This document shows, in pieces, positions 3,778 to 49,732 of a DNA stretch of 64,000 bases (position 1 is the stretch's first letter; each line of letters begins with the position of its first letter). This DNA comes from an uncultured Aminicenantes bacterium (GTDB taxonomy: Bacteria; Acidobacteriota; Aminicenantia; UBA2199). Below the pieces are notes generated by a model that was not told the DNA's origin, did no database searches, and saw only the letters and a list, made by a program, of their open reading frames with translations. The stretch lies in contig CBDAFS010000012.1 of assembly GCA_965195285.1 (NCBI GenBank), forward strand, positions 64,001 through 128,000, given 5' to 3'. The translations under genes were made by a program, and so were the position numbers.

Positions 3778-3793
3778 ATTTATTTGATATTTT
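3765..3793 (+). promoter_or_regulatory. Putative transposase promoter with -35 inside the left inverted repeat
   Basis: TTGACA (3765-3770)-17 bp-TATTTT (3788-3793) with TGn extension. The predicted +1 falls near ATG 3799. Confidence 0.5.
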
Positions 3794-3798
3794 TTTTC

Positions 3799-4716: not shown

Positions 4717-4718
4717 CC

Positions 4719-4742
4719 GTCATACTGTCAAGCAACGTCCCC
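4719..4742 (-). repeat. Right inverted repeat of RAYT-like element
   Basis: GTCATACTGTCAAGCAACGTCCCC begins 2 bp after the transposase stop codon. Confidence 0.85.
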
Positions 4743-34217: not shown

Positions 34218-34246
34218 TTGACTTTGGCTCAATGAATTGATACATT
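34218..34246 (+). promoter_or_regulatory. Sigma70-type promoter of fhs
   Basis: TTGACT-17 bp-TACATT with TGn extension. Confidence 0.55.
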
Positions 34247-34268
34247 GGACGTATCTGAGGAGGATCCC

Positions 34269-35921: not shown

Positions 35922-35938
35922 CCATAATAAATATAAAA

Positions 35939-35961
35939 GTCAAACGAAGATTCGATCCTTT
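35939..35961 (-). repeat. Junction motif, inverted relative to 40785-40807
   Basis: GTCAAACGAAGAT is a 13-bp exact reverse complement of 40795-40807; 19/23 match overall. Confidence 0.75.
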
Positions 35962-36066
35962 CTTATGGGGAGAATTATTTTATTCTGTCCGACATATAAA
36001 ATTAATGATTATAATTAAAAACATTGACTTTTGGAAATTCAGTATATCTAATAGATAAAGGAGGTT

Positions 36067-38568
36067 GTGATGAGAGTGTTGGGTAATAAAAAAACTATAT
36101 TTCTCCTTCTTCTTTTGTTTTTCTTTATGGCATTTTCAACTCATGGTTATGCCAGGGAAGAAAAGAGCAGTGAGGTTAAAATCTCATGGGAAGAATTTAA
36201 AAAACTATTAAATTTGGATGCTGATGAAGTCAGTCTGACCTGGGAAGAATTCAGGCAGTTAATTGCTCAGACCGGTGAAGAAAATACAATCCCATATACG
36301 GTAAAAAGCGGGAAGATCATCCTGCCTCGGGAGCAGTTCAAACAATTGCTCAACAAGATGAAACTACCCAGAGTATCTATTTTAAAACCTCCGGCAGATT
36401 ATATTATCACTAAAGCCGAATATTCGGGACAATTGGAGAATAAAACGGCTGCCATTACTGTCCGGTTTTTTCTGGAAATCTTTGAAAAAGAAAGCAGAGA
36501 CTATAGAAAAATTCCTTTTTTACCTCAATCGGTTGCTATTGAAGAGGTTTTGCTTGACGGTAAACCCGGGCTGGTTATGGAACAAAGCGGCTGGTATCAT
36601 ATCACTACTGCAGAAAAAGGGAGACATGTGTTAACAGTTAAATATTACACTCCATGCAACCTGGAAAAAGGTTCTCAAATCCTCAATATCACCATACCCA
36701 GAACTGCTATCACCCTGTTTGACCTGATAGTTCCCCTGGAAAATGTGGATATTGAAATTCCAAATGCAAAAGAATTACTAATATCACAAAAGAAAAAAAA
36801 TACCAGAATCACTGCCATACTTCCTGCTACGGATTATATTAAGGTACTTGCTCATCGTAAATATATTTCTACAAAAACGGTATCCGAAGAAACACCGGCA
36901 AAAATTTATGCTGAAACCGTCAACCTGCTTTCTATAGAAGAGGATGCAATAAGGGTTAACTGCCGGGTTAAACTGAATGTTCTTCAAAATACAATAAATC
37001 ACATTAAAACAAAAATACCCGACAAATACACTATTCTATACATTTATAAGCGTAACGGGACACGACTGCGGGACTGGAAAACCATAAAAACCGAAAATAA
37101 TGGCCAGATACTGCATATTCCATTTGATTCTCCGTTAGACGGCAGCATTGTCTTTAATATTATAGCTGAGCGTTTGTTTGAATCAGAAAAAACAGAGATT
37201 GATTTTAACGGTTTTCAGATTATCGGAGCTATCAGGGAGACTGGATATATTGGTGCGGAAAAGAAAAGCACAGCAGAGGCAACACCTACGAAAGTTGAAA
37301 AATTAGACCGTATTGATATTAAAGACCTTCCCAATGAATTGATAAATATGTCTAAACGACCTCTCCTATTCGGATTCCGTTATTTACGCCATCCTCACAA
37401 TATCTTAATGACAGTGACAAAACACAAAGAATTACCCAGTATCAGTACGGTAATTGATATGGCCAGTGTAATAACGGTTATCCTTGATAACGGTAAAATG
37501 CTAACAAAAGCAGTATTTACGATCAGGAACACATATAAGCAGTTTCTTGACTTAGAACTTCCATCCGGTTCAAAGATCTGGACAGTATATGTAGCAGGAA
37601 AAAGGGAGAATGCATCAAAAATAAAAGACAAGATATTAATCCCGCTTTCCCGTTCAAGTATGAAGGATAATATTCTGCAGAGTTTCACAGTGGATCTGAT
37701 CTATTATGGAAAGGAAGATTCTTTGAATTTTGCAGGCAGCCAGAACATTCATTTTCCAAAAACAGATGTGATGATCAGCAAAATGATCTGGTCAGTCTAT
37801 TTGCCCAGGAATTATAATTACCTCCATTTTGCAGGGAATGTGGAGAAAGAAGAGATGGCGAGTACTTTTAATCTTATTTTAGGGAAGACCCGCGGTTTCA
37901 GCCTTGATAAAGCAAGGAATTATTATGATGTAGGGATAAATATAGAAAAAGAACCACAAGATCAGAGACAGATGAGTGATTATGAACAGTCACTTCAGAG
38001 TGTGTTTAAGAACCAGTCCATCAGACAGAAGGATATAGCAGTTCAGATGCAGAATGAGGCCAACCTGGAAACCATAATCAAACAGGAAAAGAGTAAAGGG
38101 CTTGGAATGCCCGGATCAAGTGCTGAGACCTTAAAAATCGAACTCCCAACCAGCGGTCAGATTTACAGATTCAATAAGACTGTTATTGAAGGGGAATCCA
38201 TTACTCTGTATTCATATTATATTTCCAGGTCAGTCATGACACTTATTAAAATTGTAGTCATACTGATTATATTATTGTTTGTTTATCTATTGAGGAAAAA
38301 GATTAAAAATCTTTTTTACAGTATCTATAAATGGGTCGGTAACCAGGAAAAATTCTGGAGTTTTATCAAAACAAGAACCGGTTCGAGGCTTGCTCTGTTT
38401 ATAGCTGCCTTATGTTTTGTTTTTATCTCCCACGTTATTTTTACGGTATTGGTGCTGCTTTTTATTATGGCAGTATTCAAGCCAAAATGGCTGGTACCGA
38501 AAATATCCGGTGAGCAGCAAGGGTTTCCGAAAAACCCAGAAGATAATAGAGGGTCAAGTGAATCATGA
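36067..38568 (+). CDS. Large exported, C-terminally membrane-anchored hypothetical protein (paralog A)
   Basis: RBS AAGGAGG, signal peptide, beta-rich body, C-terminal TM helices; aligns by eye with the next ORF. Confidence 0.85.
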   Translation: MMRVLGNKKTIFLLLLLFFFMAFSTHGYAREEKSSEVKISWEEFKKLLNLDADEVSLTWEEFRQLIAQTGEENTIPYTVKSGKIILPREQFKQLLNKMKLPRVSILKPPADYIITKAEYSGQLENKTAAITVRFFLEIFEKESRDYRKIPFLPQSVAIEEVLLDGKPGLVMEQSGWYHITTAEKGRHVLTVKYYTPCNLEKGSQILNITIPRTAITLFDLIVPLENVDIEIPNAKELLISQKKKNTRITAILPATDYIKVLAHRKYISTKTVSEETPAKIYAETVNLLSIEEDAIRVNCRVKLNVLQNTINHIKTKIPDKYTILYIYKRNGTRLRDWKTIKTENNGQILHIPFDSPLDGSIVFNIIAERLFESEKTEIDFNGFQIIGAIRETGYIGAEKKSTAEATPTKVEKLDRIDIKDLPNELINMSKRPLLFGFRYLRHPHNILMTVTKHKELPSISTVIDMASVITVILDNGKMLTKAVFTIRNTYKQFLDLELPSGSKIWTVYVAGKRENASKIKDKILIPLSRSSMKDNILQSFTVDLIYYGKEDSLNFAGSQNIHFPKTDVMISKMIWSVYLPRNYNYLHFAGNVEKEEMASTFNLILGKTRGFSLDKARNYYDVGINIEKEPQDQRQMSDYEQSLQSVFKNQSIRQKDIAVQMQNEANLETIIKQEKSKGLGMPGSSAETLKIELPTSGQIYRFNKTVIEGESITLYSYYISRSVMTLIKIVVILIILLFVYLLRKKIKNLFYSIYKWVGNQEKFWSFIKTRTGSRLALFIAALCFVFISHVIFTVLVLLFIMAVFKPKWLVPKISGEQQGFPKNPEDNRGSSES

Positions 38569-40775
38569 ACAATAACAAATGTAAATATTTAATTATTATC
38601 CTGTTATTTTTCTTGTTTGCAGGCAATAACATTATCTTCAGCCAATCTACAGATAAGGAAGGTATTACTCTGACCTGGAAGGACCTGCAGAAACTCCTCA
38701 ATCTTAATGCCAATAAAATAGAGATCACATGGGAGGGATTCAGGAAACTTCTTAAACAGACCGGGGCCCGGATGGATATGGTTTTTGAGATCAAAGACGG
38801 GATAGTGACTATCAAGCGGGAACAATTCAGGCAGATCCTCAAAAAAATGAAACCTGTTGAGAAAATTGTGGTGGATCCGCCCAAAGACTATATTATTACA
38901 GAAGCGGAATATTATGGAACAGCAGGGAATAAGAATAGCAACTTTTCTGCCATATTTAAGATCTATGTTTTTGATCGAAAAAACCCGGTTTATATTAATA
39001 TTCCGATTATTCACACCAATTTTGCATTAAAAGATATCCGCGTTAATAAAAAGCCTGCGCTAATTCACACCAGAGGGGCCTGGCATAATCTCATCCTGAA
39101 CCGGAAAGGCTTATATCGGGTTAAAGCTGTTTTTTCAATTGGAAACAATAAACAAAGCCTTTATCTTCCCGTTATTCGTTCAAATATCAACCGTTTGGAT
39201 TTCACCGTATTAAATAATAATCTGGAGATAAATGTTGATCCGTCCATAAATGTAAAAAGAAAAAACACAAGTAACAAGACTCAAATCCATACTAATTTCC
39301 CCCCGACAAGCAAGCTCCTGATTAACTGGACCAGAAGGACAGAGAAGAGGGAAAAACAGCCCCCATTCTTTTATGCCAATACCCGTTCGTTAATTTCAGC
39401 GGAGGCTGATATTCTGCGGGTTAAAACCCGTGTTAATCTGGATATTATTCAGAGTACACTCGACAGGGTTTCCCTGGTGGTGCCGGAGAATTATGAAGTG
39501 ATAAAAATCGATGGCGTGGCAGACAGCGAGTGGTGGGTAAGGAAAACCGCTATTGGAAGGGTTCTGGAGATCCATTTCAGGTATGATGTTGACCGTACTA
39601 TCGGGTTTACCGTATATGCAGAACGAATGATGACTGCAGAAACTATTGCTGCTGATTTTACCGGTTTTAAGGTGATTAAAGCCAGAAGAGAGACCGGGGA
39701 TTTAGGGATTGTTTCCGAAAGTTCGGTACAGGTTAACATAGATGAGAAAGATAATTCCGGACTGGAAAAAATAGAATTTCATAAACTGCCGAAAGGTTTT
39801 CTACATATATCATCACGTCCGATCCTGTCTGCCTTTAAATATATCAAACACCCTTTCAAGCTCCTTGTTCGTATAACCAAACATGACCGGGTAGAGGGTA
39901 TTTCCACAGTAATTGAGTCTGCTGATATAACCTCACTTTTTTTAAAGGAAGGTAAAATGATCTATCATATTATGTATAGGGTACTGAATACCTATAAACA
40001 GTTCATGGAACTGGAACTGCCAAAAGATTCAATTATCTGGACTGTTTATGTAGATAATAAAAGGGGAAAAGCATCCAGCAATAAGAAAGGAAAAGTGTTG
40101 ATCCCTTTGATACGTTCTTCTGGCAATGGGGAAAACATAAGGCCTTTTAATGTTGAGTTGATTTATACCTTACCCATAGATAAATTCAGAATATTCGGTA
40201 AAGGAGAGTGTTTTATTCCTTCCTGTGATATTTTTATAAATAAAATGAGAGTTTCACTGCACATACCCCAGGGATATGGTTATAATTTTGATAAAACCGG
40301 ATGGGAGGAAGAGAAACCACCAGATTCCAGGCAAAAAAGAAAAGAAGATATATCAAGAATTTCATCTTTTGAAGAAAAAACCGATAGATACAAACAAATT
40401 GAAAAAGCAATTACAGTTGATAGTAAAGCACCTTTGAGTAAAAAAACAGATGAGACAGTAAAAGAAACTAAAGAAGGGGGCGTATCGGGTGGAGTGGTTG
40501 CAGGGGAATTAACTCCGCCTCCATCAGGAAAAGTTCAGAGAAAACCAAGATCCGGAATTGTTACCGGACCTGCAGGCCTCAGCTCAATAAAGGTTTATCT
40601 TCCCTTGTCCGGTATACGGTTTGTATTTTCTAAAAAAATTGTTGATAAAAACGAGAAATTTTCTTTACGGTTTTCTTATTTCAGCCAGTGGTTAAAAACC
40701 GGAATTATATACCTGTTTGTTTTTATAATTGTTATTGGTATAGCCATTATTATCAGGCGCAAATTTAAAAAATAA
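38565..40775 (+). CDS. Large exported, C-terminally membrane-anchored hypothetical protein (paralog B)
   Basis: ATGA overlap with paralog A; shares PP.DYIIT.AEY, RETG, NTYKQF..LELP and LP.SG motifs. Confidence 0.85.
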   Translation: MNNNKCKYLIIILLFFLFAGNNIIFSQSTDKEGITLTWKDLQKLLNLNANKIEITWEGFRKLLKQTGARMDMVFEIKDGIVTIKREQFRQILKKMKPVEKIVVDPPKDYIITEAEYYGTAGNKNSNFSAIFKIYVFDRKNPVYINIPIIHTNFALKDIRVNKKPALIHTRGAWHNLILNRKGLYRVKAVFSIGNNKQSLYLPVIRSNINRLDFTVLNNNLEINVDPSINVKRKNTSNKTQIHTNFPPTSKLLINWTRRTEKREKQPPFFYANTRSLISAEADILRVKTRVNLDIIQSTLDRVSLVVPENYEVIKIDGVADSEWWVRKTAIGRVLEIHFRYDVDRTIGFTVYAERMMTAETIAADFTGFKVIKARRETGDLGIVSESSVQVNIDEKDNSGLEKIEFHKLPKGFLHISSRPILSAFKYIKHPFKLLVRITKHDRVEGISTVIESADITSLFLKEGKMIYHIMYRVLNTYKQFMELELPKDSIIWTVYVDNKRGKASSNKKGKVLIPLIRSSGNGENIRPFNVELIYTLPIDKFRIFGKGECFIPSCDIFINKMRVSLHIPQGYGYNFDKTGWEEEKPPDSRQKRKEDISRISSFEEKTDRYKQIEKAITVDSKAPLSKKTDETVKETKEGGVSGGVVAGELTPPPSGKVQRKPRSGIVTGPAGLSSIKVYLPLSGIRFVFSKKIVDKNEKFSLRFSYFSQWLKTGIIYLFVFIIVIGIAIIIRRKFKK

Positions 40776-40784
40776 AAATAAGAT

Positions 40785-40807
40785 AAGGGGTCAGATCTTC
40801 GTTTGAC
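40785..40807 (+). repeat. Junction motif AAGGGGTCAGATCTTCGTTTGAC
   Basis: AAGGGGTCAGATCTT recurs exactly at 44364-44378; inverted partner at 35939. Confidence 0.8.
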
Positions 40808-40834
40808 GTTTAAAAACACAATTCTTTTATTTTC

Positions 40835-41046
40835 TTATTCTTCTATGTTTTCAAGAATATGCCGGCGCAACTTTTCAAAAGCCAGCGCTCCTGTTATATG
40901 CCCCTTTTCCAGCACTGTTATTAAGCGTTCGTCATAACACTGTTTTTGATCAAGTTATCCATTTTTGATTTGTCATAAGATTGAGCATTTAGCTCAAATG
41001 CCATAAATAAGAAGAGTAATGTGATTAATGTTAATTTTATTTTCAT
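40835..41046 (-). pseudogene. Deletion remnant of a secreted protein gene
   Basis: AAGGAGG RBS then MKIKLTLITLLFLFMAFELNAQSYDKSKMDNL..., stopping after 41 aa (40921). An overlapping frame encodes a C-terminus-like ...LITVLEKGHITGALAFEKLRRHILENIEE*. Confidence 0.5.
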
Positions 41047-41292
41047 TTTTTATTCCTCCTTGTTTTTTATCTCTTTTGGAAATTAACGTCGTAGGAAAAT
41101 CTTTTTTTCATCTTAATGAAATATTAGGGAAATTATTGTTCATTGTCAAAAAAGAAGGCGGAACCCATTCTATTTATCTTTCTGTCTACCTTTTCCAATC
41201 CTGCATAGAGGGGTAGGGCCAGTGTGTTGTGACCCCTTTTGTTTCAGAAACCCCTTAAAAAACAGGGACAATTTAATTGCTTCAATCTGTCA

Positions 41293-44247
41293 TTACCTTT
41301 GGACAGGTTCCAAATGTTGGTCTAGCCAATTAAGTACTTCTTTAATAAGTTGATTTCGAGGCACAAAATGTCCTGAATCATAGGTGATTTTTCGTTTAAG
41401 TTTCTGTGATGTTCCGAGTAGTTCAAACATTGGTCTTTGAGATGTTTTGTATATAAAACTGGCATCATATTTTCCATTTAACATGAGTACCGGAATCTTC
41501 ATGCGAGGAAGAAAAGTAAAGGGATCAACTTCCGGAAGATGCTTTTTGGAACTCAGCCCGGCAACATATAGGACACATACCTTAATACGTTTTTCAATAG
41601 CGACCATTAAGGGGCCCAATCGGCCTCCCCAACTGAAACCGTAATAGGCGAGTTTGGCCGTATCGATATCGATGCGGGTTTCCAGATAATCAATAGACCG
41701 CGCTAAATCTTTGTACCATTGAATCACATGTTCTTTGTAGGCAATTTCACTTTGGGAAGTTGATCTTTCCTTATAACGGCGCTCATAAGTACCCTTGAAA
41801 ACAGGATAGATCACCGCACGTCCATCTCTTACAATAAAATCTATATTATTGAGAGTCAACAACGATGTACTGGACAACATACGGAGGGCGGAAGCACCTG
41901 GAAAATACACGACAACCTGATAGGGTGGTTTAATATTGTTGGGAAGAAAAAGGTAGGCAATAACACGCTCATTACCATAGGCGGCATCAAATGAAATCTT
42001 TTGTTTTATCCAGATTTCTTTACTATGGTCTTCAGATTCGATTACTGCATTCAAATCTGTCTTATCATAAGCGTACATCCTCTTAAAAATCTCAAATTCT
42101 TGATCAGATACCGGCTGTTCACTCATAAAATCTCTGGGAACTTTTGATTTTATCGGACTTTTGAGAATCGTCAGGTTTTCATCGGTTTCATGATAAGTAA
42201 CACAACGAAATCCATTCATTGGAGACCGATCAAACGACGGCTGCGAATAATGCTTATCAGTGAACATATAAGGCGGGTCGCTCCAACCACCCCCTAAGGT
42301 AAGACGTTGCCCACTCAGGCTGCTTTTATTCCAGCACCATTCCCGTGCATTGCCGGCCATATCATGAGTTCCGAAGGAACTCATCGCATGATTGGTGCCC
42401 TTCGGAAGGGAACCGGAATTGTTGAAATTGCTTGCCAGAATTACAAATGAATTACCATGGGACATGTCGAATTCCCCGAGCATTTTTGGAAGACGCTGAC
42501 GAGTATCTAGTCCCGCAGCCCTTCTCCAGTGGTAATAGGTTGGCAGTGACTTTCCCATAAAATCAGCATAGGCTTCCGCTTCATACCAACACACACCCGT
42601 TACCGGATAATCACCCTCGCCCTCCGGATAATCCCCGGCTTGCCATGTGGCCGGGCCGGGCCGACCGGTCTGATCAATGAATAGAGCAACGGCTTCGTTC
42701 CAGGAAAGGGTTTGTTCATCTTTCATGAAAGATTGTTTCCAGTACTGCTTATTTCTATATCCACCACTATCTACAAACCTCTTATATTCACTATTAGTAA
42801 CCTCATATTTATCAATTAGATAGTCTTTGATTTGCACTTCATGGATATCTTCACGATTTTGAAGGGTTACCTGAATTCTCACACTGGGTATACGCACCAT
42901 GGACTCAGGAATATTTCCATTCTCATCAAGCAGGTAACGCCTTTGATTAAGTTGATCCGAACTCGTTGCGTCATAAATGGTTCGGAATCCTTTTTTCTCA
43001 ATTTTTATTCTGGAAAAACCAATCGGAAATCTGATGTTATCCAGTGGTGTTACTCCGGCATATTGCCAATCTTCCCCGTCTTTTGCGTTATATTCTTTCC
43101 AGAATATATTTGCATTGTTTGGTTCTGAACGAATAGTAAGATACCTCGAGAAGCGCGGCCAGAGTTTGACCAGCATGGGATCGTCAGGGATATGTTGCTT
43201 TGCCTTTGTGGCCAATTTAAAAGCAGTACTATAATGACCCTCTTCGGCAAGCCGTTCGATTTCAGGTATAACTTCATTTTTTGCCTCACGGATTTCAGTA
43301 AGACGATGAGTAAACCGTATCAGGAGAAAAGAAATTGCGAGAATAATAAGAGTAAATGGAATAGCAAGTTTTGGCTTTTTGAATAATTTTAATATGTTCT
43401 TTATCTTTTTAAACCGAATGGGTGGTGTTTTAGACGTGGGTTGAAAATTCATCAGGTCCTTTAAGAGTTCGGTTATGGTAGAATAGCGTGATTTCGGATC
43501 TTTTTCGAGCGACCGAAGAATGATTCGTTCAAAATCTTCCGGTAGATTATTTTGAAATTCTCTTGGATGTTTCGGGTCCTCATTCATAATCGAATACACC
43601 ACCGCCTGTTCATATTCTCCCTTAAAAGGTAATTGTTCTGCAATCATTTCGTATAAAATCACTCCAAAAGACCAGATATCTGTTTTATAATCCACTTCGT
43701 CTCCACTCGCTTGCTCCGGAGACATATAGGCTACGGTTCCAAGTGTAGATTGTGTTTTGGTCAATTTAGTTCGTCCGGACAACTTGGCTAAACCAAAGTC
43801 AAGAATTTTTACTACGCCCTCAGTTGTGATAAAAATATTAGCAGGTTTTATATCTCTATGGATGATTCCTTTTTTATGTGCTTTTTCCAAACCTTCTGAT
43901 ATTTGGATCGATATATCAACCGTTTCATCAAAATTTAATGTTCTCCGGCTAATTTTTTCCTTTAGTGTTTCGCCTTCATAATAATCCATACATATGAAAA
44001 AGCGCCCATCATCAGTTTTATTTATTTCATGAATAGTGCAAATGTTATTGTGTTGGAGTGATGATGCAGATTGGGCCTCACGAATGAAACGTTCCTCGGT
44101 TTCTTTGTCTCTGGTCAATTCCGGTGGTAAAAACTTTAACGCTACATTGCGTTTTAGGTTGGTGTCCTCAGCTTTGTAAACCACTCCCATACCACCGGAA
44201 CCAATTATGTCGAGAATTTTATAATTAGAAATGGTTTTGCCAATCAT
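41293..44247 (-). CDS. Ser/Thr protein kinase - TM - FGE-sulfatase (SUMF1) - alpha/beta hydrolase fusion
   Basis: GSGGMGVVY, HRDIKPAN, DFG and YMSPEQ; YEVTN, DMAGNAREW and GFRC; GFSWGG with Asp (GKYD) and His (SGH). Confidence 0.9.
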   Translation of the reverse strand: MIGKTISNYKILDIIGSGGMGVVYKAEDTNLKRNVALKFLPPELTRDKETEERFIREAQSASSLQHNNICTIHEINKTDDGRFFICMDYYEGETLKEKISRRTLNFDETVDISIQISEGLEKAHKKGIIHRDIKPANIFITTEGVVKILDFGLAKLSGRTKLTKTQSTLGTVAYMSPEQASGDEVDYKTDIWSFGVILYEMIAEQLPFKGEYEQAVVYSIMNEDPKHPREFQNNLPEDFERIILRSLEKDPKSRYSTITELLKDLMNFQPTSKTPPIRFKKIKNILKLFKKPKLAIPFTLIILAISFLLIRFTHRLTEIREAKNEVIPEIERLAEEGHYSTAFKLATKAKQHIPDDPMLVKLWPRFSRYLTIRSEPNNANIFWKEYNAKDGEDWQYAGVTPLDNIRFPIGFSRIKIEKKGFRTIYDATSSDQLNQRRYLLDENGNIPESMVRIPSVRIQVTLQNREDIHEVQIKDYLIDKYEVTNSEYKRFVDSGGYRNKQYWKQSFMKDEQTLSWNEAVALFIDQTGRPGPATWQAGDYPEGEGDYPVTGVCWYEAEAYADFMGKSLPTYYHWRRAAGLDTRQRLPKMLGEFDMSHGNSFVILASNFNNSGSLPKGTNHAMSSFGTHDMAGNAREWCWNKSSLSGQRLTLGGGWSDPPYMFTDKHYSQPSFDRSPMNGFRCVTYHETDENLTILKSPIKSKVPRDFMSEQPVSDQEFEIFKRMYAYDKTDLNAVIESEDHSKEIWIKQKISFDAAYGNERVIAYLFLPNNIKPPYQVVVYFPGASALRMLSSTSLLTLNNIDFIVRDGRAVIYPVFKGTYERRYKERSTSQSEIAYKEHVIQWYKDLARSIDYLETRIDIDTAKLAYYGFSWGGRLGPLMVAIEKRIKVCVLYVAGLSSKKHLPEVDPFTFLPRMKIPVLMLNGKYDASFIYKTSQRPMFELLGTSQKLKRKITYDSGHFVPRNQLIKEVLNWLDQHLEPVQR

Positions 44248-44353
44248 TATTACCTCGTAAATTATTTAAAAATTCTACCACTTTTAGATCTGATTTTTAT
44301 AACAGTATAACACAACGATAACCGGATTTAAACGCCTTATGGATTTTCAAAGA

Positions 44354-44411
44354 GGGGTCCAAAAAGGGGTCAGATCTTGGATTTTGCATTGTTAATTAAA
44401 AGACCTGACCC
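44354..44411. repeat. REPIN-like hairpin GGGTCAGATCTT-21 nt-AAGACCTGACCC preceded by a partial GGGGTC copy
   Basis: 11/12 inverted match between 44367-44378 and 44400-44411. Confidence 0.8.
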
Positions 44412-44424
44412 AGAATATGAATAA

Positions 44425-45672
44425 TTAAAAACTGTATTTAATCTTTACATATACCATGTCGTTTTTATTGAACTGTCCGAACATGCCTTTGTCGCCGGTA
44501 AAAATATTTGCTCCGAGCAACACATCAAAACCGTCAAAAAGTTTATAGGTCACTTTTCCGCGTATAAGCGCATCTCCATTATTCAGGCCTACATAAGTGA
44601 ACAATTCAAGGAACAATGTTTCCCTTAACAAATCTTTGGAAGCGAGAAAAGTCATCATATTTTCCGCACGGTCATTTAAAATCGGATCTTCATAATCCAG
44701 TATCAGCTGCTGAATGAACTGAATGCTCATTTTAATATCCAACAGTGTAAAATCAACTCCGAGCAGGTAATGTAAATAATTTTTTTCAACTACCCCTTCT
44801 TCAAGCATGGGATCCTCTGATAAAAAATATTTTCCAAAATACCAAGCCCCTTCTCCTTTTATTACGAAGCTTCCGAGTGTTGTACCAAAACTCCCCCCGA
44901 CAAGCCCTAAACGGTGGTGCTCCGGAATAACTGTTATCGAGTCGGGCTGCAATGTTACCGGATCAATATTCTTTACTGTATGCATTGTAGGGTCATCATC
45001 CCACATATATCCACCCATAATGTCGAAGTCCAGTGCAGAGGTCACAGCGGAATATTTGAGGAATACTTCACTGTTCTTAACGCTTTTGGATACCTCCTCC
45101 CTGGAATAATCAAACTCAGGTTGAAGCGGAAGATCAAACCCGGGATTCCATATTGAATCCTCATCCGGGAACCTGGTGGGTGTAAAAACCGGTACCCAGA
45201 CAAACTCAATAGTACTATCACCTATATAGTAATCAGCTTTTAGGGATGTTATCCCAATCCGGATCTCATCAAATTCGGGAAGCAAAAATTCCCTGAGGTC
45301 TTTAGGTGAGATAACATCAGTGATAAAAACCCCGTCTGCTTTTCCCCAAATGATCTGCTGCTTTCCGATCCGGATATCCATCGAATTAAAAAAAATATCA
45401 ATATAGGCCTGGCGCAGCCCTATCTCCAGGTCCTGATCCGGATACTGGTAAATGTAAGGATTGACTTTAAATGCTATTTTCTCTTTTGAATGATCCAGGT
45501 TTAAATTAAATGTGTTCTGGATTATGGCAAAATCGTTTCCGGCTGATAACAGTATCCCGGAATAATTCCTTACATAACCGGTAAGGTTAAGTGAGCCTGC
45601 ATTTAATCCAACCAAAGGAGTCAGCAGGAATACCAATATCCCTACTGTTATAAATGTTCGGTTCCGCATCAC
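44425..45672 (-). CDS. Outer-membrane beta-barrel (DUF1302-like)
   Basis: Signal peptide, LRQAYID, IRIGKQQIIWGKADG, C-terminal KYSF. Confidence 0.75.
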   Translation of the reverse strand: MMRNRTFITVGILVFLLTPLVGLNAGSLNLTGYVRNYSGILLSAGNDFAIIQNTFNLNLDHSKEKIAFKVNPYIYQYPDQDLEIGLRQAYIDIFFNSMDIRIGKQQIIWGKADGVFITDVISPKDLREFLLPEFDEIRIGITSLKADYYIGDSTIEFVWVPVFTPTRFPDEDSIWNPGFDLPLQPEFDYSREEVSKSVKNSEVFLKYSAVTSALDFDIMGGYMWDDDPTMHTVKNIDPVTLQPDSITVIPEHHRLGLVGGSFGTTLGSFVIKGEGAWYFGKYFLSEDPMLEEGVVEKNYLHYLLGVDFTLLDIKMSIQFIQQLILDYEDPILNDRAENMMTFLASKDLLRETLFLELFTYVGLNNGDALIRGKVTYKLFDGFDVLLGANIFTGDKGMFGQFNKNDMVYVKIKYSF

Positions 45673-46451
45673 AGGCCTCTCTTCATCATCCTTTCGGTAA
45701 ACTGTCTGGCCGGAATACCTGTATTAATCATCATATCTGAAAGTTCCATCAGTGTTGAGTGTTTTTTCTGAACATTGTACATCTCAGAATCGAGGATCGT
45801 CCAGAATCCGCTGATTTTTTCATGTTTCCTGATTTTCAGAATCTTTAACAATTCTCCGTCTTCATCATAGAATTCCCTTTGTAACCCTATCCATTTATCT
45901 TTAATAATCCAGGTTATTGTCCGCGAATACATATATTCCTCATCTTTTGTTTTACTCTCAACAACATAACAGTCTTCACCTTTGAAGTTCTCTTCCCTTA
46001 ATAACCTGTGGTTATCCTCATTGGGATGCCTATCACCAAGATCATCATAAGTAAAATCCGAACCCATAAAATAATCACTTTTACTGTCACTGGAAATTCT
46101 TTTTACCCTTTTAAGAGCTGGCAGATAAATCCACTGGTCATCATCTTTCCCCTCTTCAACATAACTCCAGTTCATAAATGATGTATTTCTTACATCAGCT
46201 GGTGAAATAAAGAACATAATACTCTTCTCTACTTTTCCGAAATCCTTGGTAAACTGTTTTATCTTTCTAACCCGTTTATTTCCATGAGAATTGATAAGGG
46301 TCATGGTAAGATTACCCCTGCTGTCATTCCCATCATCCCGGTTATAAACTTTTTCCATGATCTGTAATCCTGTATGTTCCGCTCCGGTTACCGTGAGTAC
46401 CGGCAGAAGAATAAAACTTAAAACCAAAATCTGAATTCTTTTTACTGACAT
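45669..46451 (-). CDS. Outer-membrane lipoprotein-sorting protein (LolA-like)
   Basis: SPADVRNT, DDQWIYLPALKRVKRI and FMGSDFTYDD motifs. Confidence 0.88.
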   Translation of the reverse strand: MSVKRIQILVLSFILLPVLTVTGAEHTGLQIMEKVYNRDDGNDSRGNLTMTLINSHGNKRVRKIKQFTKDFGKVEKSIMFFISPADVRNTSFMNWSYVEEGKDDDQWIYLPALKRVKRISSDSKSDYFMGSDFTYDDLGDRHPNEDNHRLLREENFKGEDCYVVESKTKDEEYMYSRTITWIIKDKWIGLQREFYDEDGELLKILKIRKHEKISGFWTILDSEMYNVQKKHSTLMELSDMMINTGIPARQFTERMMKRGL

Positions 46452-46452
46452 T

Positions 46453-48768
46453 TCAAACCTCCTGTTTTCTGTTTGTTTTGTTTTTATCTTTTTTAAAATA
46501 TAGATTTGACATGTAAAGAAGCAGATACATTATTGAAACAGTGCCGACAAAACTTGTGAACATATTCATGGATACAAGTGCTCCGAGTGACCGGTTAGGC
46601 GGGAAAGCGGAGAATAAAAGTACTAAAAATCCTGTAATTACAACAAGGGCATTAAACACTATGGCCCTACCGGAGTGCTGCATAGTAAGTTCTCTTGCAA
46701 TAATCTTATCCCCTGTTTCAATAGAATATATCTTATATCTTTCAATAAAATGAACCGCATAATCAATCCCTATTCCGACTGCAATACTGGATAACAACGC
46801 TGTAGTTGTGCTCAGGGGAATATTGAATAATCCCATTACCCCGAAACTTATCAATGCAGTGATAACGATAGGGACAGACCCGATAAATCCTGCAAGAACT
46901 TTTTTAAACATTATCGAGAGGAGAATTATGATCATTACAAGTGATATCAACAGGCTCAATATCTGCCCCAATAGTATCAGGTCGGTAAAAACAAGCCCCT
47001 TGTATCCGGAACCTGCATAGTTGATCTTAACTCCAAGTTCATTTAGCTTCGTCATATACCTCTCAATAACTCCTATTGCACTCTTCATCACTTTTGAGTC
47101 ATCACTTTTCAGCTGGAGAATAACATTCATTTTTTTATAATCATAATTTACAACCTTCCAGAGATTCTCAGGATCTCCTGACATTTCGTATAGAAGCAGA
47201 TATTGAGCAACCAGATTTTTTGAATCAGGAATAGAATTGAACTCTTCTTTATCCGCATGCATCACCTTATTCATTCTTTTCAGGTAATCGGTAAGAGAGA
47301 AAGAATTACCCACCATCTCCTGTTTTTCAACATCTTTCTGTATATCGTCAATAACCCTGAGAATAGCCGGGTTTTTGAAGGCATCTTTTTCCCGGGAATC
47401 GAGAATAACATTTAAAGTCGATGTGCCACCGAAATGGGAATTTATAAATTTATCAGTTTGAACAATATCACTATCCTTTTCAAACTTATCAAGGAAACTT
47501 GAATTGATCCAGACCTTTCCGATCCCTATGAAAGACAGGATAATGATCGTCAATGTGATAAAAATAGTCAGGTATTTATATTTTATTATCCATTTTGAAA
47601 ATACGGTACCAAAACTATTTTTGATTGATCTATCCTTTGTCTTATTTTTATATTTCCACCCGGGAAGCCCGACTGCCATTAATCCCGCAGGGATCAGTAA
47701 CAGTGAGAAGAACATGGCCATCACAACTCCGAATGCGGTAAATAATCCGAAATATTTTATCGGGTAAACCTGGGAAGTAATTAAAGAAATAAAACCGACT
47801 GCTGTAGTAACAGAGGTCATGACAACCGGTTTCCACATCCCGTGGAACATGTCTGCTATCGCATCAATTTTTGAAGCAGAGGGGTTTTTTTTCATGAACA
47901 GATGTAAATGACTGAAAAGATGTATCCCGTCTGCAACACCGATCGCAATCAGCATTACCGGGATCATTGTCGAAACTGAATATATCGGGATATTTAATAT
48001 TGCCATTAATCCGAATGTAAGAACAGTACTGAATAAAACTACAAGCAGCGTGAGAATGGTTGCCTTGATACTTCTTAATAACAGCAGGAGTACAATGCTG
48101 ATTAAAAGTATAACGATCGGTACCATCTTCCGCATGTCTTTCGGGCCCAGGTATGCCAGGGTTCCCTCAACTATCGGGGTTCCGGCAACATAAATCCTTT
48201 CCGGCCCCTCATATTTTTTAGAAAGTTCCAGTATCCGGTGATAAAATTCCTGTGAAAAAACATCATCTTTGATCTCTGCAATTACAAGTGTTACGCTTTC
48301 ATCTACCGATACAAGGCGCCCAAAGATCATATCATTACCACGTACTGCGGAAGCCATTTTTTCCAATTGCCCGGTACTTTTCGGAACACTCTTAAAAAAG
48401 GGCTTAACATCCATTCCGTCTTCTGTCCCTGTGATATTGTCTGCAGTGAATAGCGATGTCACATCGCTTTTTTCTATCTCTTTCATTTTCTGCAGTTCTT
48501 TTGTGAGGTCTTTTATCTTTTTAATTGTACCGGGATTATATATCCCCTGCTTATTTTCAATGGCAATAATTATCCCGTCTTTTATGTTGAACCACTCTTC
48601 GGCTTGGCTACTATAGATGAATGCAGGATGTTCCTGCGGCATATATTCATCCAGGTCGGTCTCCATCCGGGTATTTGATCTCATTGCCATAAAAAATCCG
48701 ACAATTATGATTAATATCGCCAGCAATACGATCTTATTGAATTTTGTAATCAGTTTTAATATTTTCAT
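46453..48768 (-). CDS. MMPL/RND-family transporter
   Basis: Two halves with IAIGVADGIH and VGIGIDYAVH; TTAVGF motif. Confidence 0.9.
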   Translation of the reverse strand: MKILKLITKFNKIVLLAILIIIVGFFMAMRSNTRMETDLDEYMPQEHPAFIYSSQAEEWFNIKDGIIIAIENKQGIYNPGTIKKIKDLTKELQKMKEIEKSDVTSLFTADNITGTEDGMDVKPFFKSVPKSTGQLEKMASAVRGNDMIFGRLVSVDESVTLVIAEIKDDVFSQEFYHRILELSKKYEGPERIYVAGTPIVEGTLAYLGPKDMRKMVPIVILLISIVLLLLLRSIKATILTLLVVLFSTVLTFGLMAILNIPIYSVSTMIPVMLIAIGVADGIHLFSHLHLFMKKNPSASKIDAIADMFHGMWKPVVMTSVTTAVGFISLITSQVYPIKYFGLFTAFGVVMAMFFSLLLIPAGLMAVGLPGWKYKNKTKDRSIKNSFGTVFSKWIIKYKYLTIFITLTIIILSFIGIGKVWINSSFLDKFEKDSDIVQTDKFINSHFGGTSTLNVILDSREKDAFKNPAILRVIDDIQKDVEKQEMVGNSFSLTDYLKRMNKVMHADKEEFNSIPDSKNLVAQYLLLYEMSGDPENLWKVVNYDYKKMNVILQLKSDDSKVMKSAIGVIERYMTKLNELGVKINYAGSGYKGLVFTDLILLGQILSLLISLVMIIILLSIMFKKVLAGFIGSVPIVITALISFGVMGLFNIPLSTTTALLSSIAVGIGIDYAVHFIERYKIYSIETGDKIIARELTMQHSGRAIVFNALVVITGFLVLLFSAFPPNRSLGALVSMNMFTSFVGTVSIMYLLLYMSNLYFKKDKNKTNRKQEV

Positions 48769-48823
48769 TATTTTTACTCCTTTATGCAGTTAATACCAAT
48801 TACCATTTGCGGTAATAAAAATC

Positions 48824-49417
48824 TTATCTGCGATTTTCTGTTATTAATATCTTTATGGTATTCCAAAATTTTATCCCCTGTTTTTCAATATTAAAAGAGT
48901 GATTTGATAACCTCCATTTTTTAACTATCAGCCTTAATCCACCCATTATAATATTGGTAATCTGCTCCTCATGAATATCACTCCTGATCTCTGATTTTTT
49001 CTGTCCATCCCGGATTATTACCAGTATTCTATCAAAATTTGATCTCATTATTGAAAATATCTTTTTTGCCAGTTTTTTATCATCCCTGAATATTTCCTCG
49101 GAAAAGATCACAGCTGCAAAAGCAGGGTTTTTTGCAAAGTGAGAAAAATGGGTGTCAACAATTTCCCTGAGTTTATCAATCGAGGAGACTTCTTCATTCT
49201 GAATAAAGTCATTCTCAATTGGAATGAACTTTTCAAATTGCGTTAAAATAGCAATAAGGATATCCATTTTACTCTCAAAGTGCCTATATATGGCCGGTTC
49301 CGAAATTCCTATTGATCTTGAGAGGTTCTTTATTGTAAGGTTCTGTATTCCTTTTTCCGAAATAATATCGATCGAGGCTTTTATAATTTCTTCCTGTCTT
49401 TCTGTAAAAAGTTTCAT
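48824..49417 (-). CDS. TetR-family transcriptional regulator
   Basis: N-terminal HTH TIKNLSRSIGISEPAIYRHFESK. Confidence 0.92.
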   Translation of the reverse strand: MKLFTERQEEIIKASIDIISEKGIQNLTIKNLSRSIGISEPAIYRHFESKMDILIAILTQFEKFIPIENDFIQNEEVSSIDKLREIVDTHFSHFAKNPAFAAVIFSEEIFRDDKKLAKKIFSIMRSNFDRILVIIRDGQKKSEIRSDIHEEQITNIIMGGLRLIVKKWRLSNHSFNIEKQGIKFWNTIKILITENRR

Positions 49418-49433
49418 TTTTAGTTTTCCTCAT

Positions 49434-49483
49434 GTTAGTTAATATTCACTAACCACAATAATATAAAAATGTTGCGGTGTCAA
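49434..49483 (-). promoter_or_regulatory. TetR operator palindrome and promoter
   Basis: GTTAGTTAATATTCACTAAC (49434-49453, one mismatched pair) directly downstream of minus-strand TTGACA-17 bp-TATTGT. Confidence 0.7.
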
Positions 49484-49626
49484 CAAAAAAATATTTTTTT
49501 CTCATTTTTTCCCCTTTCCCTAATTTCAATATTCAAAAAATTAATAAATTAACAATCCATCCCCAATTTTTTATTGTTGGTGGTTTTATATTTGAATATC
49601 CGAAGAATTTACCCGCCTGTTCCTAT

Positions 49627-49653
49627 TGTCAAAATGTCAAGCACCGTCACCCC
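49627..49653 (-). repeat. Solo degenerate copy of the RAYT-element end
   Basis: TGTCA-AAA-TGTCAAGCACCGTCACCCC versus GTCA-TAC-TGTCAAGCAACGTCCCC at 4719. Confidence 0.7.
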
Positions 49654-49732
49654 TTGCTGACATATTGCTTTTGAAGGGTAAAATGAATCGAATTTTTGAG
49701 ACAGCCTCAAAGACTTGACCCATATTATTCTA

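Follow-up and report, generated by a model that had tools for sequence, protein, structure and literature searches.

The TIRYT transposase genes (TIRtrons) of Di Nocera et al. (2013; PMC3733652) are the TnpA-Y1 subclass 2.1 of Quentin et al. (2018; PMC6006769), where they are equated with RAYT group 1 of Bertels et al. (2017). The class is published and experimentally untested: its genes are widespread and their terminal inverted repeats (TIRs) have the consensus GGGGWSAS, and in the available text of these papers no activity or role is shown for them (PMC3733652, PMC6006769). The genome analyzed here (G000) resembles these descriptions in that a Y1/HUH core is followed by a C-terminal Bac_DnaA_C or other HTH tail, the gene lies between long inverted repeats that start with GGGGWSAS and lack GTAG hairpins, further TIRs are found in moderate numbers singly, as dimers and in groups, and several distinct genes share one genome, each with its own TIR variant. 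Within the same available text, both papers cover the genes and the repeats, with no mention of TIRs at the joints of acquired blocks; cargo turnover at one locus, flank-duplicated partial copies and a fixed internal end are likewise beyond their descriptions (PMC3733652, PMC6006769).

The REP/REPIN-RAYT systems (E. coli TnpA-REP and the Pseudomonas REPINs), as described in the accessible parts of PMC3116915, PMC3337134 and PMC5581495, are similar in that a HUH/Y1 gene stands between short repeats of its own, more copies of these are scattered through intergenic DNA, often as inverted doublets, and one enzyme type belongs to one repeat type. However, REPs are GTAG-tagged (GT[AG]G) stable palindromes, whereas the single TIRs of our locus are mostly unfolded, and RAYTs are usually single-copy, whereas this genome has 17 Y1 matches. 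Recently acquired regions of Pseudomonas are described as "REP deserts" in the part of PMC3390384 available, while the repeats here concentrate in low-GC variable regions. IS200/IS605 elements (IS608, ISDra2; single-strand "peel and paste") have the same catalytic fold, are cut at a fixed short sequence by the end, and can move any DNA between their left and right ends. They end in subterminal hairpins instead of inverted repeats and encode a transposase of about 130-150 aa; in this genome, by comparison, cargo is seldom found between inward-facing ends (4/34). In the ISCR/IS91-type rolling-circle elements of complex class 1 integrons, an HUH element end lies beside each unrelated captured gene, and such genes are stacked without an integrase. 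These elements form a separate HUH family in which the entire transposase gene is copied with each capture. They are our working analogy, with the difference that only a TIR, or a TIR with the last 10-35 codons of the gene, is left here. Integron arrays and the minimal mobile elements and dRS3/NIME of Neisseria also place strain-varying cassettes at one spot between conserved genes with short repeats at the joints, but the island studied here is without an integrase, an attC-like fold or a common orientation. Exchange in Neisseria is attributed to homologous recombination in the flanking genes.

Searches of the genome returned 17 matches to Y1_Tnp (PF01797), 16 of them above cut-off, including 13 ORFs of 290-326 aa. 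The H-x-H of the HUH motif is present in 16 of the 17 proteins (the one on contig C30 has RFH), and the catalytic Tyr in all 15 that extend to that region. Members of the class carry a C-terminal HTH of the Bac_DnaA_C, HTH_23 or HTH_28 type; of the four proteins whose tails were scanned here, two matched Bac_DnaA_C, one a weak MarR-type HTH and one nothing. Inverted ends of the form GGGG(T/A/TGA)C... enclose most Y1 genes, with about 11 of the 17 having one on each side; the upstream end is ~45 nt ahead of the start codon, and the downstream end lies at the stop codon or overlaps it. Ends of the GGGGTCAG/GGGGTCAA types agree with the published consensus GGGGWSAS, and those of the GGGGACGG and GGGGTGAC types agree at its first 6 positions only. 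Altogether, about 180 TIRs of eight families accompany the 17 Y1 matches in 3.3 Mb. The window (the whole 64,000-nt stretch of contig C12 that was analyzed) holds an intact TIRtron with inverted GGGGACGTTGCTTGACA ends and a partial upstream copy (3735-4742, + strand; Y1 ORF 3784-4716). The initial annotation had named such enzymes RAYTs, a label that we replace: they are of the TIRYT class and not classical REP-type RAYTs. In favor of its suggestion that a paralog elsewhere may serve the GGGGTC family, seven of the 17 Y1 genes are flanked by GGGGTC-type ends (C14, C31, C46, C47, C61, C3 and C15:112991). Two other assignments were rejected. For REP-RAYTs (REPtrons), the ends begin with GGGG and do not fold, and scores against NF047646 were 68.5-80.0 with a cut-off of 80, three of four falling below it; for IS200/IS605, three of four proteins scored 17.7-21.6 against NF033573 (transpos_IS200; cut-off 55), and the ends are inverted repeats.

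The locus lies between fhs (formate-tetrahydrofolate ligase; Pfam FTHFS, E 7.5e-235; 34245-35921, +) and rsmA (Pfam RrnaAD; 49733-50503, -). Among ten relatives with fhs identity of at least 72%, the two genes are 11-57 nt apart, tail to tail, in five (G001, G002, G005, G010 and G011) and 868 nt apart in one (G013); at five of five metagenome loci (fhs at least 67%) the separation is 8-488 nt. In relatives the gap is about 10-60 nt. Because fhs and rsmA adjoin tail to tail in relatives, positions 35922-49732 are an inserted island, and the 13.8-kb interval is an insertion. The GC content is 0.32-0.45 within it versus 0.45-0.51 immediately outside, its genes lie on both strands with no shared cassette orientation, and the final 1-2 codons of rsmA are not the same as in the closest relative, G003, when C-termini are compared. 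Reading the empty sites of G001 and G002 by eye, we found no GGGG-type motif. The best explanation for the interval is a mosaic in which at least three blocks were independently acquired between the converging fhs and rsmA ends.

ORFs, Pfam matches and GC content confirmed the contents of the four modules that had been read from the sequence. Module 1 (35967-40768, +) is a pair of paralogous ORFs (36067-38568 and 38565-40775) that match neither Pfam nor NCBIfam. On its left is site 1 (35934-35961, -; motif 35939-35961), a degenerate solo TIR whose tail is of the left-end type (GACTTTTAT); it differs at 3 positions from the 21-nt cross-genome TIR consensus; 9 such sites occur in the genome, compared to a mean of 0.075 for permuted controls. 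On its right is site 2, or unit R (40778-40840, +), which consists of a right-end TIR (40787-40807) with a duplicated outer flank ATAAGATAAG and is the genome's best match to the consensus (1 mismatch). Unit R retains, on the minus strand, the final codons of a TIRYT gene that has been lost (...KNCVFKRQTKI and stop, versus ...KSLCLKRQTQI and stop in the TIRYT on C31), and copies of it are found in G003, G002 and other genera. Site 1 and positions 40785-40812 form a 28-nt inverted repeat that is 82% complementary. The Y1 gene on C31 has the ends nearest to sites 1 and 2, at 2-3 mismatches; their exact TCTTCG variant was found beside none of the genome's Y1 genes. Module 2 (about 40850-41060, -) is a broken gene for a small secreted protein, a signal-peptide ORF with stops inside. 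It is followed by a short repeat that is not of the GGGG type (41092-41149, no strand), with ~90% identical copies elsewhere, six in G002 and one at C55:112499-112545.

Module 3 (41293-44247, -) encodes a Ser/Thr kinase (Pkinase), FGE-sulfatase and hydrolase fusion (Pfam). Site 3, to its left (41229-41256, -), has GGGGTCA after a partial copy; the 13-mer of this site (41230-41256) is unique in the genome, blast returned no relatives and it joined no cluster family, so that it is not validated as a family member. To the right of module 3 come a partial TIR, GGGGTCC (44354-44360, +), and sites 4 and 5, an inverted TIR doublet (44366-44411) with both arms clustering in family 11 and a fold of -7.5 kcal/mol (z -1.8). 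Exact copies of GGGGTCAGATCTT occur only twice in the 3.28-Mb genome, at 40787 and 44366, while GGGTCAGGTCTT of site 44400 (-) has 13 copies. Module 4 (44425-49417, -) is a DUF1302 barrel/LolA-like/MMPL/TetR operon (Pfam). Beyond it are a repeat absent from the earlier list, GGGGATGGATTGTTAATTTATTAATTTTTT (49535-49566, -), with copies at G003:C314 (97%), C24, C15, C40, C39 and C45; a solo TIR of the GGGGTGACGGTGCTTGACA type (49625-49655, -), 90-100% identical to Y1-flanking ends on C21, C27, C50 and C15; and site 6, a solo TIR-like end GGGTCAAGTCTTTGAGGCTGTC (49700-49721, -). The C21 end matches positions 49627-49655 at 100% over 29 nt, in line with the solo RAYT-type end proposed there. The sequence of site 6 at 49710 (-), GGGTCAAGTCTT(T), has 8 genome copies without the T and 7 with it (13-mer), whereas simple arithmetic gives about 0.1-0.4 expected copies of any 12-13-mer. 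By reading, the first 20 nt at the two sides of the MMPL block, 44366 (+) and 49721 (-), agree at 14 positions.

Five of the six boundary motifs listed initially, and the end at 49627, fall into TIR families that flank genes, with 41230-41256 standing outside. They do not make up one short repeat family, as had been thought, but at least four TIR subfamilies. Judged by sequence, we identify the island junction repeats as the terminal inverted repeats of ~300-aa Y1/HUH TIRYT transposase genes, present as solo ends, one inverted doublet and one stump of a lost transposase gene. Compared with shuffles, four of five single-end stretches fold no better (z -0.41 to +0.89), and the stretch of site 6 forms a small hairpin in its tail (z -2.9); the repeats matched no Rfam family. 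By itself, the GGGGTC hexamer shows no enrichment (802 in the genome versus ~777 expected from base composition), and the 13-mer at up to 2 mismatches was found 6 times in the window versus 2.28 expected, which is not significant (4/100 shuffles reach 6). Apart from those at the local Y1 gene, contig C12 (140 kb) has four strict members, three of them in the island and the fourth (C12:40169) beyond the window.

We then compared the locus to that of G003 (about 95% nucleotide identity). The cargo at fhs-rsmA differs between these close relatives. In G003, fhs is followed by a first R and an unknown ORF, a second R and a beta-lactamase-fold/TPR ORF, and then a third R, a solo TIR and a hydrolase ORF; the three R copies share one orientation, and each stands behind a different gene. 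Positions 43732-44359, which take in the 5' part of module 3, are 95% identical to G003:C127. This homology stops at GGGGTC, and in G003 a TIR from another subfamily begins at the same nucleotide as the G000 TIR (~44354). The MMPL operon is missing from the G003 locus, where G003:C127 links the kinase upstream region to rsmA via 64 nt. The span of module 1, on the other hand, is 92.5% identical in nucleotides (93% in amino acids) to contig C49 of G042, a member of another genus, versus only ~73% amino acid identity for fhs across genera; the homology begins 6 nt past site 1 and stops 10 nt before unit R. These identities point clearly to a recent transfer of module 1 between genera. The MMPL operon has ~74% nucleotide identity to operons of other genera over 44410/44423-49494/49499, a span bounded by site 5 and the 49535 repeat.

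Block boundaries thus coincide with TIR units: as the initial annotation had expected of a strain comparison, all seven island breakpoints versus relatives lie at or within ~40 nt of repeats. The outcome favored the initial annotation on all three of the refuting conditions that it had set, and its interpretation is supported in part. Two other G000/G003 insertion breakpoints (C55:63462/63575 and C55:67857/67913) have a TIR in neither genome, and the TIR-rich regions for the G003 comparison were picked for TIR density. The closeness of TIRs to block boundaries is also partly forced, because boundaries need short intergenic DNA and this is largely TIR-filled.

These data suggest, without proving, that new gene blocks were joined at TIRYT ends. 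In the reading that we prefer, with a probability of roughly one half, TIR termini are the physical joints where foreign DNA was spliced in or swapped, likely via a TIRYT enzyme encoded elsewhere. Such an enzyme, from among the 17 Y1 matches, would nick 6-7 nt inside the TIR, directly after GGGGWC(A), and the nick would be resealed to other DNA or would prompt repair or recombination there. That a TIRYT enzyme cuts at this position, and that such cuts rather than later repeat colonization made the joints, we infer; catalysis by the transposases, and the capture and stacking of modules by HUH enzymes that was first proposed, are likewise presumed. As the TIRs of the island belong to several subfamilies, no single enzyme would meet a matched pair.

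One potential alternative explanation is passive colonization, in which TIR units are small selfish elements or debris with a preference for intergenic DNA that is long, AT-rich and dispensable, and for the 3' ends of recently acquired genes. The blocks would have come by ordinary routes, such as illegitimate recombination, homologous recombination within neighboring genes or mobile elements since lost. We regard this as possible but rather unlikely. REPs are found mainly between unidirectionally and convergently transcribed genes, according to the available part of PMC3733652, and a pattern typical of REP-like debris is also seen here: intergenic regions with a solo TIR are long (median 406 nt versus 143 nt) and enriched between convergent genes (20/78 versus 124/1129). 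Pairs of TIRs 1.5-8 kb apart (n = 34) point inward in 4 cases, outward in 12 and in the same direction in 18, and the few inward pairs mean that cargo usually lies outside TIR brackets, as colonization would have it. The repeat-free strain breakpoints, the block copies without a TIR at some joints (G042 at the left joint of module 1, G051 at either flank of the MMPL operon), and the sharp TIR termini of 16 loci in other genomes, whose outer flanks are unrelated in a way that fits simple insertion of small units, argue in the same direction. Against colonization, the joints are tight: DNA that is neither TIR nor homologous amounts to 5-6 nt on the left of block 1 and ~2-10 nt on its right. Colonization also fits poorly with TIRs of differing subfamilies that start from the same nucleotide in G000 and G003, with divergence right past GGGGTC, and with the three co-oriented R units behind three different G003 genes. 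Finally, partial TIR copies stop at a fixed position. Of 178 TIRs, 22 are preceded by a partial copy together with a duplicated flank, and in 17 of these 22 the partial copy ends after GGGGWC(A), the same position as the G000/G003 breakpoint. The doubled architecture noted initially is real and family-wide, being present at 25/177 TIRs versus 168/6955 control GGGWC sites.

Throughout the genome, 91 of 1231 intergenic regions of at least 50 nt contain a TIR, and solo TIRs sit at GC discontinuities and are clustered, a result in favor of the initial annotation. At solo-TIR regions the lower-GC flanking gene has a median GC of 0.361 versus 0.406 elsewhere (p 1.7e-7) and the two flanking genes differ in GC by 0.081 versus 0.038 (p 2e-8), statistics that are built on crude ORF calls and include clustered sites that are not independent. 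The next intergenic region also bears a TIR in 26/85 cases versus a 7.4% baseline. In a second island (C31:165-177 kb), single-gene blocks lie between TIRs, and their G001 homologues are on five contigs.

Could the TIRs have ridden along with donor blocks, or served as RecA-type homology patches, with no TIRYT chemistry at all? We consider this improbable. The exact 21-nt TIR occurs in 16 contigs of metagenome-assembled genomes labeled with several phyla, beside Y1 proteins that share only 38-64% identity with that of C31, so patches of shared homology do exist across the community. The G036 MMPL operon is likewise bordered by a doubled TIR doublet, and a copy of the site 6 tail is found next to module 1 in G042; both are consistent with this explanation. 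However, 20-30 nt is short for RecA-dependent exchange, the TIRs on the two sides of each block differ in subfamily and orientation, and a TIR is missing from the left joint of the G042 copy.

A true integron, another site-specific recombinase system or a chance pattern is very improbable: the co-oriented repeats behind successive G003 genes and the ten co-oriented TIRs of the C31 island have an integron-like look, but Phage_integrase-family genes (PF00589) number 0 on C12 and 6 in the genome (assembly 94.9% complete), genes lie on both strands, single TIRs are unfolded (z -0.4 to +0.9 in 4/6 stretches; attC-likeness was judged from folding only) with no Rfam match, and chance is excluded by repeat copy numbers and permuted controls. 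The absence of an integrase from the island had been reported correctly, and "integron-like" survives as a loose analogy only, given the lack of integrase, common orientation and attC-like fold, the several subfamilies, the scarcity of inward pairs and the two repeat-free G000/G003 breakpoints.

Returning to TIR termini as joints, we can tentatively extend this reading to an HUH-based gene-block exchange system made of TIRYTs and TIRs, a counterpart of integrons that would act by single-strand nicking and not by tyrosine recombination; we consider the extension doubtful. A nick after GGGGWC(A) in any cognate TIR would be resealed to the equivalent TIR point on incoming or chromosomal DNA, and the DNA outside the TIR would be swapped as a result. 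Repeated rounds at the permissive tail-to-tail gap of fhs and rsmA would stack unrelated blocks, and the scars would be chimeric TIRs, stumps of transposase genes and partial ends with duplicated flanks.

Relative to the available text of the published TIRYT work, the genomes compared appear to add a relative with differing cargo at the same locus and the same repeat after each gene, an MMPL operon absent in G003 with its breakpoint at GGGGTC, and a paralog pair 92.5% identical to that of another genus from repeat to repeat; the position of solo TIRs at GC discontinuities, and their clustering, appear to be further additions. The locus points to a concrete, testable role for TIRYTs with a putative cut position, and it offers natural before and after alleles (empty fhs/rsmA sites and two cargo sets in ~95% identical genomes) as well as a block moved between genera. 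If the TIRs are only debris, the repeats still mark young DNA in this lineage, the opposite of the "REP desert" rule of Pseudomonas. If their ends are the joints, they would represent a so far unrecognized route for sediment bacteria to assemble accessory gene islands, and TIRs would be useful as island markers in metagenome-assembled genomes. If the exchange system is true, it would provide a function for a branch of the Y1 transposase superfamily that ranks among the largest and least understood, and would explain the upkeep of 17 diverged Y1 matches, mostly intact full-length genes.

Sequence comparison with relatives indicates that the interval between the convergent core genes fhs (34245-35921, + strand) and rsmA (49733-50503, - strand) is an insertion. 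A match to fhs at ≥72% identity was present in 10 of the 30 relatives searched. In five of these 10 (G001, G002, G005, G010, and G011), fhs and rsmA are convergent on one contig with a gap of 11 to 57 nt; the gap is 868 nt in G013, and the two matches lie on separate contigs in G003, G007, G014, and G016. A metagenome scan with fhs returned no strain of the same species (best identity, 75%) and was therefore used only to count empty sites: convergent rsmA followed directly in 5/5 loci with fhs at ≥67% identity (gaps of 8 to 36 nt, one of 488 nt), and no rsmA was found in the four loci tested with fhs at ∼57%. By reading, the empty sites of G001 and G002 contain no GGGG-type repeat. Among the sequencing runs listed, 21/22 hold the stretch or part of it, five of them at least half of its words and many sediment or cold-seep runs a fraction of 0.12 to 0.31; these figures are not evidence for any reading.

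The gene map of the interval proposed in the initial annotation was borne out by ORF listing and Pfam scans. After fhs come a pair of paralogous, overlapping ORFs (833 and 736 amino acids [aa]; 36067-40775; here block 1) with no Pfam or NCBIfam match, a broken gene for a small secreted protein, a 984-aa Pkinase/FGE-sulfatase/hydrolase fusion (41293-44247, - strand), and a four-gene operon encoding a DUF1302 barrel, a LolA-like protein, an MMPL protein, and a TetR regulator (44425-49417, - strand). GC content is 0.32 to 0.45 in the interval, versus 0.45 to 0.51 in the core genes on either side. At its 3' end (49733-49745), rsmA encodes ...YSGLQ* here and ...YSELTHNR* in the closest relative, G003 (locus L002), so the right joint of the island lies inside the C-terminal tail of rsmA, a tail that is variable also in G001 and G002.

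Are the motifs at the module junctions members of a real repeat family? The initial annotation had placed GGGGTC-type motifs at six sites (35939-61, 40785-807, 41230-56, 44354-79, 44400-11, and 49710-21; sites 1 to 6). Simple counts spoke against it: the 13-mer at ≤2 mismatches gave 6 matches in the window versus 2.28 expected, a number reached in 4/100 shuffles and by itself not significant, and GGGGTC as a plain hexamer shows no genome-wide enrichment (802 copies versus ∼777 expected from base composition). We clustered all 7457 GGG[AT]C-initiated 22-mers of the genome at ≤4 mismatches. Clusters of 3 to 5 members were many, as chance predicts, and eight families were clearly real, with 82, 26, 20, 16, 14, 10, 6, and 4 members (178 in total), of which 151 are intergenic although crude ORF calls cover 90% of the genome. 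A ninth cluster, nine GGGTCAGCATTTCAAATTTCTT 22-mers, was dropped because 0/9 are intergenic; all lie in coding sequence and probably represent a repeated protein segment.

Strict family members in the island are the sites at 40788 (family 5), 44367, and 44411 (both family 11). The sequence GGGGTCAGATCTT has two exact copies in 3.28 Mb, both within the island, and GGGTCAGGTCTT and GGGTCAAGTCTT have 13 and 8 exact copies in the genome. Site 1 (- strand) is without the GGGG and differs at 3 positions from the 21-nt consensus GGGGTCAAATCTTCGTTTGAC, which at 3 mismatches finds only nine genome sites, compared to a mean of 0.075 hits for 40 letter-permuted controls. Site 6 shares a 13-mer found 7 times in the genome, and the additional solo end that had been noted at 49627 (49627-55) is a family member with 90 to 100% identity to ends flanking four Y1 transposase genes. 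Thus, membership in genome-wide repeat families was confirmed at five of the six sites; 41230-56 was not validated, with no relatives found in the genome by BLAST, clustering, or 13-mer search. Site by site, every one of the four junction intergenic regions therefore has at least one validated member, and a further repeat, absent from the earlier list, lies at 49535-66. Six strict members lie on the whole 140-kb contig: besides the three of the island, two form the ends of the local Y1 gene, and a doubtful one is at C12:40169, outside the window. Separately, a 58-nt stretch without the GGGG motif (41092-41149) has ∼90% identical copies, six in G002 and one elsewhere in this genome (C55:112499-112545).

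The repeats are the terminal inverted repeats (TIRs) of a known, experimentally untouched class of transposases, TIRYT/TIRtron. We count 17 Y1_Tnp matches in the genome; 16 exceed the Pfam cut-off, and 13 are ORFs of 290 to 326 aa. Most of these genes lie between two inverted copies of a ∼22-nt motif starting GGGG(T/A)C or GGGGTGAC, one ∼45 nt 5' of the start codon and the other at the stop codon or overlapping it. Seven have GGGGTC-type ends, so the earlier guess that a paralog elsewhere serves the GGGGTC family was right. The HUH motif is intact in 16/17 matches and the catalytic tyrosine in 15/15 of those extending far enough. A full-length Y1 gene (322 aa; C30:32713-33042) has RFH replacing HUH and no clear downstream TIR, and it may be an inactive copy. 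In four Y1 proteins scanned, the NCBI model REP_Tyr_transpos fits more closely than transpos_IS200 in 4/4, with scores below the REP_Tyr_transpos cut-off in 3/4; their C-terminal tails include Bac_DnaA_C in two and a weak MarR-type HTH in one. Di Nocera et al. named the TIRYT/TIRtron class with the TIR consensus GGGGWSAS (PMC3733652), and Quentin et al. equated TIRYT with TnpA-Y1 subclass 2.1 and Bertels' RAYT group 1, noting Bac_DnaA_C/HTH tails (PMC6006769).

Folding led us to reject a reading of the TIRs as REP-like hairpins: 4/5 single-end stretches folded no better than shuffled sequence, that of site 6 forms a small hairpin in its tail (z -2.9), and the doublet at 44362-44416 reached -7.5 kcal/mol (z -1.8). 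An Rfam scan covering 35000-50500 (E ≤ 1) gave no match to the repeats; the sole hit was a sub-threshold tmRNA match within the coding region of the second paralog (40476-40526; 19.8 bits versus a gathering score of 47), most likely due to chance. Target-site duplications were not evident, by reading, in the flanks of the intact elements on contigs C31 and C49.

Site 2 is part of a ∼65-nt unit, R (40778-40840), in which a duplicated outer flank, ATAAGATAAG, and the TIR are joined to the final codons that remain of a lost TIRYT gene (- strand). These codons read ...KNCVFKRQTKI*, versus ...KSLCLKRQTQI* at the end of the intact gene on C31, whose ends are the closest in the genome to sites 1 and 2 and whose stop codon lies within TGACCCC. 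G003 (35 codons, one stop) and G002 retain longer remnants of this gene end, and G002 also has a 155-nt miniature keeping just both ends and a few codons. Relatives of the intact C31 gene (L021:163-1143, - strand) that have the exact TCTTCG-type ends are present in G002, G003, and G010. By their tails, site 1 is of the left-end type (GACTTTTAT) and site 2 of the right-end type (GACGTTTAAAAC). The exact 21-mer GGGGTCARATCTTCGTTTGAC was found on 16 contigs of metagenome-assembled genomes (L062-L077) whose titles name several phyla and include Desulfuromusa, Deltaproteobacteria, Thermodesulfobacteriota, and Aminicenantes, and the Y1 proteins that often adjoin it are only 38 to 64% identical to the C31 protein. 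Thus, either the 21-nt end is much better conserved than the enzyme or binning in these genomes is mixed.

Where do the island and its counterpart in G003, at ∼95% nucleotide identity, part? Homology ends 6 nt past the fhs stop codon (35927). In G003, the region after fhs has three copies of R, all in the same orientation. The first lies between fhs and a GGGGAC-type repeat, which is followed by an unknown 344-aa ORF; the second separates this ORF from a beta-lactamase-fold/TPR ORF; and after the third come a solo GGGGTGAC-type TIR and a hydrolase ORF. None of this cargo is in our island; conversely, searches of the G003 assembly (87% complete) detected neither the paralog pair nor the MMPL operon. 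On a second G003 contig, the 5' end of the kinase gene and its upstream region (43732-44359) are joined via 64 nt to the end of rsmA (49739), and the MMPL operon is therefore absent from that locus. The present genome (G000) and G003 agree as far as ...CAAA(A/G)AGGGGTC and differ from the following base onward, where G003 continues with a TIR of another subfamily, relatives of which lie at C62:135590 and C62:81713. The prediction that strain breakpoints coincide with the motifs held for the island: 7/7 island breakpoints fall within 40 nt of a repeat, a closeness partly forced because block ends must fall in short intergenic regions nearly filled by TIR units. Outside the island, in a part of C55 without TIRs, G003 has two insertions relative to G000, and their breakpoints carry no TIR in one genome or the other. 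Regions rich in TIRs that are mostly missing from the fragmented G003 assembly may be accessory DNA or assembly gaps and were not counted.

Single blocks also recur in other genera. Window 35967-40768 has 92.5% DNA identity to a contig of G042 (same family, different genus), and the first paralog is 93% identical to its counterpart at the protein level and was found in only 3/40 other genomes of the family; the identity of fhs across these genera is ∼73%. Homology to G042 starts 6 nt past site 1 and stops 10 nt before unit R. The G042 copy has no TIR at its left joint and, on its right flank, a doubled GGGG motif with a tail resembling site 6. In both genomes, block 1 starts with GGGGAGAATTATTTTATTCTGTCC (35967-35990; L016 4875-4898), which fits GGGGWSA; we discarded it as an end carried by the block itself, as no other copy was found in the genome or the fetched loci at ≤5 mismatches, bar one unrelated site. 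The MMPL operon has ∼74% DNA identity to operons in G036, G011, and G051 from 44410/44423 to 49494/49499, a span that runs from site 5 and stops just short of the 49535 repeat. A doubled TIR doublet flanks the copy in G036, and both flanks of the copy in G051 are free of TIRs; the G011 contig ends there and is uninformative. The island is demonstrably mosaic and recently exchanged.

The doubled architecture described in the initial annotation proved to be real and a family-wide trait. When the last 5 bases of the flank and the GGG are taken together as an 8-mer, a second copy of it lies ≤45 nt upstream in 25/177 TIRs, compared to 168/6955 unclustered GGGWC sites. Many TIRs are preceded by a tandem of the outer flank plus the first 6 to 8 nt of the TIR, e.g., tagccgGGGTCAtagccgGGGTCAGG and gaaacgGGGACgaaacgGGGACGG (in the window, 3735-3775 and 44354-44378). 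Partial upstream copies (GGGWC with ≥4/6 identical flank bases) were found at 22/178 TIRs; 17 of the 22 end after GGGGWC, GGGGWCA, or one base more, and the other five keep 14 to 21 nt. The left edge of the duplication varies (period, 10 to 49 nt); its right edge is constant and falls at the same point as the G000/G003 breakpoint. We know of no process by which a duplication would vary on the left and always stop at one point on the right. The fixed edge may be the footprint of a nick or joint immediately after GGGGWC(A). We put at about 0.5 the probability that the TIR termini are the actual joints, made or stimulated by the enzyme.

Alternatively, and with less probability, the TIRs could be later colonists of junk-tolerant DNA.

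The genome-wide statistics on TIRs rest on crude ORF calls, and clustered sites are not independent. TIRs occur in 109/2080 intergenic regions and in 91/1231 of those ≥50 nt; of the 91, 13 lie beside a Y1 gene and 78 are solo. Convergent genes flank 20/78 solo-TIR regions versus 124/1129 others. The lower-GC flanking gene has a median GC of 0.361 at solo-TIR regions versus 0.406 at others (P = 1.7e-7; for regions ≥150 nt, P = 6e-6), and the two flanking genes differ in GC by 0.081 versus 0.038 (P = 2e-8). The next region also has a TIR in 26/85 cases, versus a 7.4% baseline. This is the opposite of Pseudomonas, in which recently acquired regions are "REP deserts" (PMC3390384). A second dense array (C31:165000-177500; L030) has ten TIRs, all on the minus strand, between single genes. 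Homologues of four of these genes (77 to 84% identity) lie on four different G001 contigs, with a fifth short match on another, and one G003 match, whose start is 56 nt away from a TIR, terminates on a degenerate one. A replication-strand bias of TIR orientation, such as that of IS608-type insertion, was considered and not used as support: 114/178 TIRs are concordant with GC skew (odds ratio, 2.7; P = 0.002), an association that is modest and inflated by clustering.

If TIR termini are the joints, do they form a dedicated HUH-based cassette-exchange system? This strongest form of the reading is unlikely. Consecutive TIRs 1.5 to 8 kb apart face inward in 4/34 pairs (12 outward, 18 co-oriented), the paralog pair and the kinase gene each lie between outward-facing ends, and the island TIRs come from at least four subfamilies, all of which argues against a capture machine. 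The earlier remark that the island has no integrase agrees with our finding of no tyrosine recombinase on contig C12. The kinase domain of the fusion has 24 tblastn matches in the genome (41293-44247 and 23 others), with a TIR within 700 nt in 5 and on both sides in three; one copy (C55:75551-79159) has 3 and 4 TIRs on its two sides. With only 5/24 near a TIR, the case for kinase paralogs as preferred cargo is weak. That the TIRs act only as shared homology, or simply travel with the blocks, is improbable.

What is new, then, for this class of transposases is that its TIRs sit where the blocks of a mosaic and recently exchanged island meet, and that a recurrent end point lies inside the TIR itself.
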